This document shows, in pieces, positions 21,001 through 32,319 of a stretch of 32,319 nucleotides of DNA. A program made the position numbers. Source of the stretch: a virus. Location of the stretch: the UHGV virus genome UHGV-0201657; one strand, written 5' to 3'. The stretch's first letter is position 1. Each line of letters starts with the position of its first letter.

Positions 21001-24000
21001 AATGAATGCGAACCAGAGTGATCAGGTAACCGGGCAGATTGACACAACCACACGGGGGCAGGTATCGCAGGCAGATAAGTATGTTGCCGGGCTACAGGAT
21101 GTTGCTGCTCTCGGTTCTGGTCAAAAGGCGGATGCGTTACAGAGTTTTAACTCGCTGGCAGACAGCAGTCTGGCAAAAGCTAAATCGGACGCACAGGCTG
21201 CGTTTACGAAACAGCAGGGGCGAGCCTCTCTTGTTGGCGCTGGTTTGGGTGCGGTAGGTGCATATGCGATGTATAAGGCTGGCGGTAGCGGAGGAAGTGG
21301 CGGTGCTAAAACACCTGGCACCGGCGCTAATGCCATTCAGCATCAGGCTCAGAACTGGAGACTGTGATTATGGAGTACGGTAAATACGAAACACTTGCGA
21401 GATACGGTTATACCGGAGCTGCCCGTCCACAGGGTGACTGGCAGACGTCAGCAGCGCTGACACGCCAACAATACGACGACTGGCGAACCAGATATTTGCC
21501 CCGCGTGGCAAGGCTGGCTGACCTTGGCGAGAACAACAGCCTGATGAATGCACAGCTTGCCCGGGTGGGCGGCCTTGCCACTTCCAGTCTCCGTACAGCG
21601 CAGATGGCGCAGGATAACCAGATGGCGAGATACGGGGTAAGCCGCCCGGATAATCCCAACAGTAACACACTGGGTTTGCGTAATGCTCTGGCAATTGCTG
21701 GCGCGAAAAATGGTATCCGTGAAGCAGAGCAGGATCGCCAGATGAACATACTGACGGGGGCTTCTGCACCTGCAAGACAACAACTGAGTGTTGGCGGAAA
21801 ACTGGTGTCAGCGTAAGGGGGCAATATGGGATACGGTTTACTGGATATTGCGAATCAGTCGCGGCGTGAGGCATTACAGGGAATAAGTGATGCCGACAGA
21901 CGACGTGAAGAAATTGAGGCCGCGAACAAACAGATGGCGGCGCAACAGAAAGCGCAGAACAAACAGAATATCGGCACGGGAATTGGTACGGGTGCAGCTA
22001 TGGGCGCTGCTGTTGGTGGTCTCCCCGGTGCGGCTATTGGTGCTGTCATAGGTGGTATTGCTGGTTCTTTGTTTTAAGGAGTGGTGAATGAGCGGATTTG
22101 CACAGGGTTTACTTGCCGGATTCAGCACGGTTGACCAGGCAATGACCCGTCGTAAGGAACTTGGTTTGCGAGAAGCACAGCTTGCTCAACAACAGAAAAA
22201 TAACGAGCGCGATTTTGAATTTGCACAGTCGCAGTTTGAACATAATAAAGACGTTGATCAGCGGAACTTTGATTACAGAGCCAAAGTCGACGACCGTAAT
22301 TATGCACTGCAGGAAAGGGAGTTTAACGCCAACCAGAATTACCGGAATGCGTCGCTGGGTATGGAGCAGCAGCGACTCCGGATGCAGAAATACAACCAGC
22401 GACGGCTTGAGTATAACGATATGCTGGCGCGCGATCAGCGTGTGATGGCGGCGCTTGGAAAGGCTGTGGATGCTGGCGATCGGGATGCAGCAATGCGTCT
22501 TTACGGCCAGTTGTCAGAGGGTAATCCGCTGAGGCTGATGGCGAATGATGGCTATGTAGCGAAAGCGGGTCAGGCCGTGAACAACCTGCAAAAAATCTTT
22601 GATGACAAGCCAGACAGGGCTATCGCTTCACTTAATACGCCGGAGAATCTTGATGTCCTTTCCGGGGTGTTTGGCCCGGAACTGCAACAGCGTATTGGCA
22701 TGCCCGATTCAACCGGGAAAAAGACGATAAAAGAGGCCAGGATTGGCAGTATAGTACCGGCACAGCAGGAAGGGTACATACTTATCGGCCTTGATCTCAC
22801 ATACAGTGATGGCTCTACAGCACATAAACCCGTTACGGAATACGGCAGTGCACATCCTGATGATCAAACCGTGCTGGCGGTGCCTGTTGATAAGGCTGTT
22901 GAGCTTGTCAGGGAACGCAGTAAATTCGCGGAAATTTCGAAAAATTTCGGCTATTTCACGCCGAAGCAGCAGGGACTTTCTGCGGATCAACTTCAGAAAG
23001 GAGCCAGCCAGGTAGCGATAAAGGTTGCACAGGACGGCGGTGATGCGCAGGGAGCAGTGACGCAATATTATGCTTCGATGGGACTGCCGCAGTATCAGCA
23101 GCAAATTCAGCAGCAAAAAATTCAACAAGGGATTACCAGTTGGGCGGGTGATGATCCGGATAAGCAGGCATTTGCCAGAGAAGTGGCCTCCCGTCAGCCA
23201 GAAATGCTGGAGCCTCAGAATCAGAAATTGCTGGAACACGGGTATGCGAATTTTCTCCGTATTCAAAAGGCCAGGGAGGAACAGGCCAGGGATGATAGCG
23301 CGGCCTCTGCATCTGAGTTTATCCGTGGTCTGAAACAGAATTACGCGCAGTAATTCACCATTCCCGTTAATACTATTTCCTGATACCCGGTCATTGTGCC
23401 GGGTTTTTTTATGGAGTCTGTATGGCTTATTCCGATGAACAGCGCCCTGAAGCGCAATTTGGCAACCAGAGCCGCAACAGCCTGAACATTCAGCAGCCGG
23501 GAGAGACTGACAGCTATGATGTGTTTTTCTCCGATCCCAATCGCTGGAAGGACAACAGCACGTCGTTCAGCCTGGGCGATGTATTGCCAACTATGGGGAA
23601 AGGTGTCGCCCAGTCCGTCCGGGGGACAGGGGAAATGGCCCGTGGACTCGGTGATGCGATGATTCAGAGCCCGGTAAAAACAGGGGTACGTATTTTAAAT
23701 GAGTTCAGCCGTATGGGGCTGCCGGGAGTCGCAACTGTTCAGGATATTTTTGTCGGTGGCAGCAAGGGGGCGGATGAGGTCATCGACACTCTGCCTGATG
23801 GAAAAAATGCGGTTACTGATACTGTCGGTAAAGGTCTGAAGGTCACAGGCAAGGCCGTCAGTGGCGGCGCTAAAGCCTCGGATGAATGGCTGACTGGCAA
23901 GATGTCGCCGGGGGCGCAGCGGGCGCTGAATACACCGATGACTGAAGGATATGATGATTCAGCGGTCTGGGTAGCGAAAGGGGTTAACCTGATTGGTGCG

Positions 24001-30000: not shown

Positions 30001-32319
30001 AACATGGGGCCGGAAACCAGTAACGCCGTAATCCGTACGCTGGGGAAAGTTAACCGCTTCCTGGCAACGGTGAACACGTCGTATAACCCGGAATTTCTGG
30101 TCAGTAACTTCATCCGTGACGTGCAGACTGCGGTGATGAACCTGAAGGCTGAGCAGGGAAGAAGCGACGGCAAACTGAAAGGGCTGGATAACTTATCCGC
30201 GCTGGCTGTGGTGAAAGACAGCCGTTCCGCCATGTCAGCCGTATACGCAAGTCTGCGGGGTAAAACCCTCACGGGCAAAGGCGCACAGTGGCAGAAAGTG
30301 TGGAAAGAGTTTGTTGAGGACGGAGGTAAAACCGGCTGGTTTAACATGGGTGACCTTGAGGGCCAGCAGAAGGAAATGGATCGCCTTGTGTCGCTGGCGA
30401 AGGGCGGATGGAAAGGCCAGAGTATCGGTGCATGGCATTCGTTCCTGAACCTGGTCGAGGATGCCAACGGCGCGGTTGAAAACGCTCTGCGTCTTTCTGC
30501 CTATAAACACGCCCGTGATGCCGGTTTGTCACGCCAGCAGGCGGCGTCTCTTGCCAAAAACATGACGGTGAACTTTAACCGTCGTGGTGAGCAGGGGATG
30601 CTGATGAACTCGCTGTACATGTTTGCCAACGCCAGCATTCAGGGGACCGCAAACCTGGTGAGAACGCTCGGACATCTTAATGGCGACGGGCCGTTACTGG
30701 AGCGCCTTCGCTGGAAGAATCTCAATGTACCGCAGAAAATCGTGCTTGCAGCTGTGGGAGCGGGTTATCTGCTTGGCTCGCTTAACCGCAGTGTGGCGGG
30801 TGAGGATGATGACGGGGTTAACTGGTACGACAAAGTACCGTCTCATGTGAAAGAGCGTAACCTCGTCATCATGAAATCGATGTTCGGGGGCAAGGCCGGT
30901 GAGTACTGGAGTATTCCTCTGCCTTACGGGTACAACGTGTTCTTCCTGCTTGGTCATACAGCTGAAGGTGTGGCAGCGGGCGACCTGACTGCTTCACGTG
31001 CTGCCGGTAATGTTGTCGGCGGTATCCTGGGGGCATTCAGCCCGATCGGCAGCGAGATGTCGGAAACGTTGTCGGGGGCATTGCTGAAAAATGCAGCACC
31101 GACAATTCTGCGTCCGTTTGCGAATCTTGCCATGAACGAAAACTTCATGGGGGCGCAGATTTACCAGGAGAACATGCCGTTTGGTACACCAAAACCTGAC
31201 AGCCAGCTGGGAAGACGTTCAACGCCAGAAGCGTACAAGGCGTTTGCATTCTGGCTGAATGCGTTCTCAGGTGGCAGCCAGTATCGTCCCGGCGCGGTGG
31301 ATATCACACCGGAATCGCTGAAATTCTGGATTGACTATATCTCCGGAGGGACAGGGCGCTTCATTTCCAAAACCACGGATGCGGCGGTGAAATCGCTGAA
31401 TGGTATTGATATACCGGAACAGCAGGTGCCCTTCCTGGGGAAAATTTCGGGTGAGGTGATGCCGTATGCAGACCAGCAGAAGATGTACGACCGGATGACA
31501 GAGGTTGCGCAGTATCACGCAGAGCTGAAGAGTCTGACCGGTGCAGAAAGAACGGCGTTCATTGACGAGAACAACGGAAAATTGTTGATGAACGGGCTTA
31601 TGCAGGATACCCGGAAGAGACTGAAGGATTTGCGCAAACAGCGCGATGCCATTTATGCCGACAGTTCTCTCAGTCTGGCGCAGCAGGCGGCGATGGTGAA
31701 ATCGGTAGAGCGGGATATGAAGGTTGCCGTGGATCGGTTTAACCGCGAGTACAACAAAAAAGTGGGAGTGGATTAACAGAAATGGCCCCGTACGGAAGTG
31801 CGGGGCTGATTAAGAAATAAACACACATTAACCTGTAATAACCGGAGCTATTAACATATAGTCAGAAAGAGTATTTCATGTGAGACAGAGAGCCGATTTA
31901 TGTTTAATGAAGAAAAAGTTGCGCAAATGGCAGCGTATTTGCTGAAAAAGCATGGCGGATCTATGCGTTTCATTAAGCTGATGAAGCTGATGTATCTCTC
32001 TGACCGCAAAGCAATGGAGTCTTTAACCGGGAAGGGGAGAGGTTTGAATGCTCCCCCACAATTCCCCGGCATCAAATCTCCATGCAGGTGAACTATTTTA
32101 CCCCCAGCGGCAAATCGCAAAAACAATCAGTGCGATCGAAATGGCAGCCACTACAATTGCAAATGCTTCAGGCTAGGTCATTGGCGTACCTCCTTCGGCG
32201 GTTCTGGTAGCGGCATCCAGTGGGTTACTTCTTTGAGATGCAGGTCTTCGCCATCACCGTCATCCCAAGTGGGATTGCCATCATTAAACCAGTCGCCATA
32301 TACGCCGACCTGAGTGTTG

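Follow-up and report, generated by a model that had tools for sequence, protein, structure and literature searches.

The largest gene in the window, that is, in the whole 32,319-nucleotide stretch of virus genome UHGV-0201657 analyzed here, encodes with a probability of roughly 0.7 a large internal (ejection) protein, built as a polyvalent protein, from a podovirus prophage of the Sepvirinae type. This giant open reading frame (ORF) had been singled out by a first-pass annotation of the DNA, which described it as a 2784 amino acid (aa) ORF at 23422-31776 filling about a quarter of the window and proposed a polyvalent protein packaged and injected with the DNA, with an ejection protein that crosses the cell envelope as the alternative. 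The extent of the ORF was confirmed and both proposals gained support, the first from the LPD5, LPD1, MuF_C, and LPD38 domains, predicted zincin folds, and an abundant virion homolog in phi24B, and the second from a cysteine-free cassette running from small to giant genes and an essential homolog in Sp5. The two proposals are compatible.

The giant gene was 100% identical in DNA to an Escherichia coli FORC_069 prophage gene annotated as "LPD38 domain-containing protein" (WP_000331665.1) and ~95% identical in nucleotides over its full length to the giant gene of Shiga toxin (Stx)-converting phages such as Stx2 phage 86 (Sepvirinae, Traversvirus), with matches in 186 phage records and in 427 of the 5426 complete E. 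coli genomes. Sequence comparison identifies the ORF as a homolog of Sp5 ORF80/ECs1242, phi24B gp47, and Stx2 phage 86 gp35, the last differing from the giant protein mainly in aa 1-500 and 1700-1900 (86-94% identity). The FORC_069 prophage (NZ_CP023061.1 2471186-2533231) is of the Stx-phage lineage, integrated in ynfG, and stx-negative; the stx operon of Stx phages occupies the interval between the Q antiterminator and the NanS-like esterase, and since this gap is only ~770 bp in the FORC_069 prophage it carries no stx. The window is a prophage late region comprising lysis genes, terminase, a P22-type portal (Pfam E 8e-131), an N4-gp56-type capsid protein, fibres, lom, and hok, followed by five small ORFs and the giant ORF, which is the last gene of the morphogenesis region in this prophage of a short-tailed phage and takes the same late-region end position as in the Stx phages. 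PHROG 616 matched the giant protein end to end. Full-length homology to an ordinary tail or tape-measure protein, named in advance as refuting evidence, was looked for in Pfam, PHROGs, NCBIfam, and the PDB and was not found, and comparison with solved structures using the whole protein, the region of the first zincin domain, and two profiles returned matches at chance level only.

Virion data from near-identical relatives were consistent with a packaged protein. The homolog gp47 was detected in purified phi24B virions, where LPD5, LPD1, LPD38, and MuF-C were noted, was absent from the cryo-electron microscopy (cryo-EM) maps, and was proposed to be an encapsidated ejection protein (phi24B preprint, 2026; 10.64898/2026.04.10.717836); the supplementary proteome of the preprint gives 93.6% peptide coverage, 422 peptides, and the second-highest spectral count. 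Estimated copies per virion were ~19 for gp47 (range 11-35) compared to 12 for the portal, and ~22, ~36-40, and ~30 for the cassette homologs gp51, gp50, and gp48, respectively. The 86-aa gp49, homolog of an 83-aa cassette protein, gave few spectra and was dismissed as a contaminant (10.64898/2026.04.10.717836); homologs of all five cassette products were detected in phi24B virions.

Genetic data are available for Sp5, in which deletion of ORF80 (2793 aa) left excision, head formation, and DNA packaging normal and gave neither plaques nor lysogens, making ORF80 essential for infectivity; deletion of the neighboring ORF79 had the same phenotype (Mondal et al., 2016; PMC5155283). The DNA-filled ΔORF80 heads also failed to bind anti-tail-fibre antibody and the Sp5 authors reported a COG1483 match (PMC5155283), observations that speak for the suggestion made for ORF80 of a tail-assembly factor or AAA+ ATPase powering a step of tail formation. 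Such a function is highly improbable for the giant protein, as no ATPase family appeared in whole or tiled Pfam and NCBIfam scans, a Walker A motif is absent, and gp47 is present at ~19 copies in mature virions, yet missing from the resolved tail.

The giant ORF closes a cassette of five tightly spaced genes (20711-31776) whose products all lack cysteine. At the 0.82% cysteine content of the other 19 late ORFs, the chance of none in 2784 aa is ~1e-10, and in 150 giant homologs cysteine was missing from 124 and limited to two or fewer in 145; the gene preceding the cassette has three. Control counts gave zero for P22 gp7, gp20, gp16, and needle gp26, for T7 gp15 and gp16, and for N4 gp50, gp51, and gp52, compared to 2-8 for the portal, tail, and head-completion proteins of model podoviruses and four for P22 gp14, which is non-ejected and encoded directly before gp7. 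Cysteine suppression is a conserved feature of the Schitoviridae ejection operon that has been linked to passage of the periplasm, and gp73-gp72-gp71 have been equated with T7 gp14-gp15-gp16 (Lokareddy et al., 2024; PMC11445570). Cysteine is likewise missing from N4 vRNAP (3500 aa; 14524-25026) and Bcep22 gp75 (4602 aa; 4904-18712); its absence has been published for N4/DEV, and no such statement was found for the giant proteins of Bcep22, GP4-like phages, or Sepvirinae.

The cassette is conserved beyond the Stx-like phages, with Vibrio phage D191 encoding the same five genes in the same order, all five products being cysteine-free and the four small proteins matching their counterparts at BLASTP E 3e-5 to 4e-15. 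In addition, the 421-aa product is the counterpart of Sp5 ORF79, which is essential, and the 218-aa protein has a match in Bcep22 gp70, a virion-associated protein; like the 83-aa product, the 218-aa protein terminates in a Gly-zipper tail. The 83-aa ORF (21826-22077, + strand) is annotated as "bacteriocin" in phage 86 and matches Pfam Gly-zipper_YMGG in its C-terminal tail (E 4.5e-06); its place in the cassette and its 77-aa Vibrio phage counterpart (E 2e-8) suggest that it is a true internal or ejection protein of small size. The earlier description of the five genes as an operon holds in part, for the tight spacing and for the gene order shared with the Vibrio phage; however, a terminator-like hairpin lies ahead of the giant ORF, and on the + strand of the cassette region no promoter-like site was detected. 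By analogy with lambdoid phages, the cassette may best be seen as a segment of a long Q-antiterminated late transcript, and the three hairpins followed by T-runs (Table 1) could tune the relative expression of moron, cassette, and giant gene.

Cysteine suppression also characterizes the internal proteins of short-tailed phages in the N4/DEV (gp50/gp71, gp51/gp72, and gp52/gp73), T7, and P22 sets, although T7 gp14 retains one cysteine, unlike the cassette products. The P22 gp7-gp20-gp16 and T7 gp14-gp15-gp16 genes are ordered from small to large in the late region, as in the cassette, and N4 gp50-gp52 are adjacent late-region genes. The large member carries enzymatic domains in the N4, T7, and P22 sets as it does here, including a metallopeptidase in N4 gp50. 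The giant protein, unlike N4 gp50 or T7 gp16, contains neither an RNA polymerase nor a transglycosylase, the vRNAP Pfam domains of N4 gp50 being absent from it, and its copy number seems higher (~19 per virion compared to ~3 for T7 gp16 from the T7 record annotation). The giant protein would by this analogy work like the P22, T7, and N4 ejection proteins while standing outside their families.

Polyvalent proteins and the four Pfam domains detected in the giant protein, LPD5, LPD1 (aa 1351-1430), MuF_C, and LPD38, were all defined by Iyer et al. (2017; PMC5512222). As in polyvalent proteins (Iyer et al., 2017), many unrelated domains share one polypeptide encoded among virion genes: several effector-type domains and a zincin-like metallopeptidase with an intact site were found at a virion-gene location, with packaging shown by proteomics for the phi24B homolog and delivery presumed. 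The profile searches on tiles and structure predictions per domain that the first-pass annotation had called for returned these polyvalent-protein domains in Pfam, a CLCA_X domain in NCBIfam, and zincin folds. Compared to the domains of Iyer et al. (2017), "LPD1" is here part of the first peptidase domain and LPD38 covers just a portion of a C-terminal module of 915 residues. Within LPD5, a tile scan gave a short Arm-DNA-bind_4 match (26782-26853, aa 1121-1144; 23.7 bits with a cut-off of 22.3 bits) that may hint at DNA binding or be due to chance.

Both of the HExxH motifs previously noted in the giant protein are present and conserved, compared to 0.038 expected by chance from its composition, and the second is in fact HExxxH. 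An exhaustive search with aa 1190-1720 gave 5871 homologous clusters, nearly all in proteins of 2000-5700 aa, and conservation was counted in an alignment of 150 listed representatives of these. The key residues of domain 1 were H1253, the HEWFHSLD motif (nt 27241-27264), and the E1365/E1372 helix (nt 27514-27537), with H1253, H1274, and H1278 each conserved in 149/149, E1275 in 148/149, and D1281 in 145/149. The motif sits in an invariant block, NLTK..G.GSLAHEW[FW]HALDNYF, and ~90 residues after it, inside Pfam "LPD1", lies the invariant helix E1365..A1368 R1369.F1371 E1372. The NCBIfam CLCA_X model (250 positions) matched aa 1172-1427 end to end (E 5e-45) and, with the invariant helix inside "LPD1", this span therefore makes the HEWFH region and "LPD1" one domain, of which Pfam "LPD1" is the C-terminal half or helix region. 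Members of the zincin family CLCA_X, a sister group of the CLCA protease domain, come mostly from phages, prophages, and plasmids (Lenart et al., 2013; PMC3650047). The HExxH and downstream Asp of this family are present in domain 1, which at 153.8 bits scored under the NCBI whole-protein cut-off of 260 and does not stand alone, being embedded in a 2784-aa protein. Domain 1 also fits the "widely distributed phage-type" metallopeptidase, which has a His in strand 2 and an Asp following HExxH (PMC5512222). In the models, the HExxH helix, downstream acidic ligand, and zincin fold of domain 1 agree with a gluzincin of CLCA_X type, a putative zinc-dependent peptidase.

In domain 2, H1541 was conserved in 91/94, E1542 in 94/94, and H1546 in 72/92 sequences, and because H1545 was present in 40/93 only, the motif reads as HExxxH and not HExxH, a metallopeptidase class described by Iyer et al. 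(2017; PMC5512222). The giant protein has both kinds of metallopeptidase of that study, HExxH with the strand-2 His and downstream Asp as well as HExxxH. Downstream of motif 2, E1597 (nt 28210-28212) was conserved in 81/84 and is a candidate third metal ligand. Both metal sites were complete and conserved in the alignment and both motifs fell within predicted zincin folds in the structure models; Pfam metallopeptidase and peptidase models covered neither HExxH motif in whole and tile scans, the best being M76 at E 0.13.

Fold relatives of the zincin domains (with the two values listed for each) were MtfA (8.5, 162), PPEP-2 (7.3, 145), PPEP-3 (7.0, 150), and anthrax lethal factor (7.0, 207), followed at lower rank by minigluzincins, Spartan, IrrE, Wss1, and thermolysin. 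The modeled domains resemble protein endopeptidases (MtfA, PPEP, lethal factor, and CLCA-like) and not known cell-wall hydrolases, which argues against a mainly peptidoglycan-degrading ejection protein that breaches the cell wall with its metallopeptidase to make way for the conduit, a role proposed by the phi24B authors (10.64898/2026.04.10.717836). T7 gp16 and Bcep22 gp75 do carry wall-degrading transglycosylase domains, a precedent for such a role; an SLT or lysozyme domain was found in no tile of the giant protein, and the preprint assigned the peptidase activity to MuF-C, a PBECR-type predicted RNase and not a metallopeptidase (Iyer et al., 2017; PMC5512222), so that its label "MuF-C metallopeptidase" is a mix-up. 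A primarily wall-degrading protein is therefore improbable.

Many proteins share the C-terminal module (aa 1870-2784) as one conserved block with 33-77% identity, and it was present in ~30 of the 150 giant representatives, always at the extreme C-terminus. Database matches placed it after varied domains including methyltransferases, PF18760, PF18809, and PF18798. Among complete phage genomes, it ends a 3066-aa protein in Vibrio phage D191 (40% identity) and the 4602-aa Burkholderia Bcep22 gp75 (27% identity), matches giant-gene regions in Ralstonia GP4-like phages, and is homologous among these counterparts and the "DarB-like" giants Bcep22 gp75 and JC1 gp69 of Lessievirus, the latter described by its authors as most similar to Bcep22 gp75 and virion-associated by mass spectrometry. 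The giant genes of Bcep22 and Vibrio D191 are last in the morphogenesis module, as here, and both products are cysteine-free. Their cargo differs: Bcep22 gp75 carries SLT, methylase, SNF2 helicase, and LPD3 domains, and the Vibrio D191 protein is without LPD5, CLCA_X, and MuF-C. The DarB-like antirestriction family phrog_10089 matched only aa 2345-2672, inside the module, and an identity as a DarB-like antirestriction protein was rejected, as Pfam scans of the whole protein and tiles detected no methylase (methyltransferase) or helicase domain. A relationship to the encapsidation region of N4 vRNAP was likewise rejected (hhalign probability 0.3%), and stand-alone modules of ~900 aa, of which two examples were checked, were dropped as proof of autonomy: P0112 abuts a contig end and P0039 lies in a rearranged prophage without the cassette.

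In near-identical relatives, ~10-30 copies of the giant protein are packed in the T=9 head along with the four small cassette products, outside the ordered capsid and tail, and on the favored explanation of an internal ejection protein the same would hold here. Upon release of the tail needle, the cysteine-free proteins would exit largely unfolded via the portal and tail channel, and the five would cross the oxidizing periplasm and help the DNA to cross the envelope, with the Gly-zipper-tailed small proteins and the 421-aa protein probably helping to form the passage. The constant 915-residue module would be the delivery or virion-anchoring part, and LPD5, the two zinc metallopeptidases, and the MuF-C-type predicted RNase a central cargo acting early in the cell, where the metallopeptidases would probably cleave the polyprotein or host proteins after entry. 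A more specific scenario is tentative, its elements taken together being possible with the odds somewhat against them: the module may be a new fold and a delivery chassis shared by at least four podovirus lineages (Sepvirinae, Vibrio phages, Ralstonia GP4-like phages, and Burkholderia Lessievirus) that holds the giant protein in the head before engaging the mid-sized 421-aa cassette protein during ejection, with the fused cargo entering the cell and being freed there by the two built-in zinc peptidases and the 83-aa protein acting as a membrane-inserting ejection component.

Alternatively, the giant protein could be cargo only, a passenger that bears anti-defense or host-takeover enzymes and plays no structural part, with the four small cassette proteins building the trans-envelope conduit. 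The polyvalent-protein concept (PMC5512222), the variable central cargo ahead of a constant C-terminal module, the DarB-like methylase and helicase domains of Bcep22-type relatives, and the Gly-zipper tails of the small proteins, which suit membranes, are in line with this. The cargo-only explanation is weakened because the Sp5 ΔORF80 phenotype is absolute, the loss of plaques, lysogens, and tail-fibre antibody binding being stronger than loss of an accessory effector predicts; moreover, the giant or large member of the operon itself belongs to the ejection apparatus in N4/DEV and T7, and we regard a pure passenger as unlikely.

Several observations weigh against the ejection protein explanation favored above. 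The antibody result for the ΔORF80 heads suggests a role in tail attachment, retention, or stability beyond a pure ejected-cargo model. Extensive processing inside the virion is unlikely because ~62% of the phi24B gp47 gel spectra came from above the portal band. A strong transmembrane segment is absent from the giant protein, and no solved structural relative of the C-terminal module was found, which leaves position and conservation as the sole guides to its role. No similarity was detected to P22 gp7/gp20/gp16, T7 gp14-16, or N4 gp50-53 (none at E <0.8 by phmmer; hhalign probabilities at most 3.2%), and the literature holds no demonstration of ejection or injection for any member of the lineage.

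Earlier publications already cover the giant gene, the location of its product in the virion, and the polyvalent character of that product, and the present finding mainly re-identifies a known object with four refinements: the merging of LPD1 into a CLCA_X zincin, the correction of the second motif to HExxxH, the 915-residue C-terminal module, and the delimitation of the five-gene cysteine-free cassette. Phages of this kind spread Shiga toxin genes, and the frequency of the giant gene among complete E. coli genomes given above adds to the relevance of two questions, how short-tailed phage DNA crosses the envelope aided by ~5 MDa of internal protein and what injected enzymes do during the initial minutes after infection. 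Direct tests are now possible for the domain map, both intact zinc-peptidase sites, and the cassette.

Table 1. Features of the giant ORF and its cassette; residues refer to the giant protein and nucleotides to the window.
Feature	Residues (aa)	Nucleotides	Strand	Description
Giant ORF		23422-31776	+	Uninterrupted, ATG start, 2784 codons/aa, 307 kDa, 25.9% of window, no Cys
Ribosome-binding site GGAG		23413-23416	+	6 nt 5' of giant-ORF ATG, read directly from sequence
N-terminal conserved block	161-408	23902-24645	+	From sequence comparison
Acidic, Pro-rich low-complexity linker region	450-1000	24769-26421	+	From composition
LPD5	1047-1190	26560-26991	+	Pfam E 4.5e-43; predicted alpha/beta fold, pLDDT >90
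Zincin metallopeptidase domain 1, CLCA_X type	1172-1430	26935-27711	+	Includes Pfam "LPD1"
Motif HEWFH	1274-1278	27241-27255	+	In giant ORF
Zincin-like domain 2	about 1480-1620	27859-28281	+	Motif HEIIHH at 28042-28059
Motif HEIIHHAMEH	1541-1550	28042-28071	+	In giant ORF
MuF_C	1740-1832	28639-28917	+	Pfam E 1.1e-16; PBECR-type predicted RNase
C-terminal module	1870-2784	29029-31773	+	915 aa, mostly helical, predicted one compact fold
LPD38	2467-2672	30820-31437	+	Within C-terminal module
GC-rich hairpin GCCCCG...CGGGGC		31785-31806	+	Directly 3' of giant-ORF stop, without T-run; read from sequence
Four upstream cassette genes		20711-23353	+	218, 150, 83, and 421 aa; all without Cys
Hairpin with T-run		19811-19831	+	Terminator-like, after lom
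Hairpin with T-run		20669-20688	+	Terminator-like, directly 5' of first cassette gene
GC-rich hairpin then T-run		23385-23404	+	Terminator-like, between 421-aa gene and giant ORF

Among the further features of the giant protein, the long acidic and Pro-rich linkers reported earlier are real, with 18% D+E and 8.5% P in aa 450-1000 compared to 13% and 4% elsewhere. The Gly/Ala-rich hydrophobic segments described near the C-terminus exist as well, although their hydrophobicity is weak (aa 2436-2458, Kyte-Doolittle 1.35) and similar segments occur near the N-terminus (aa 181-199 and 406-433). Among phages, the N-terminal conserved block is common only to the giant proteins of Stx-like and Vibrio phages, and the Gly-zipper-like segment at aa 406-433 directly follows it.

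Elsewhere in the window, the 424-aa Phage_Tail_Tip protein (16734-18008, + strand), which by position and size corresponds to the phi24B central fibre or needle, contains no cysteine, as is also true of gp26, the P22 needle released upon infection; cysteine is likewise missing from the putative scaffold (7519-8526) and from an ORF at 9818-10207. Directly 3' of the giant gene lies a 63-aa ORF (31901-32092, + strand) annotated as a hypothetical protein. The start of its product, MFNEEKVAQMAAYLLKKHGGSMRFIKLMKLMYLSDRKAMESL, presumably resembles a Panacea/SocA-type (DUF4065) antitoxin and the rest diverges; the ORF has the appearance of a truncated remnant. A gene on the - strand (1531-2145), situated between lysis genes and terminase, is annotated as a lipopolysaccharide core heptose(II)-phosphate phosphatase, and its location in a stretch of lower GC (0.41-0.46) suggests a moron.

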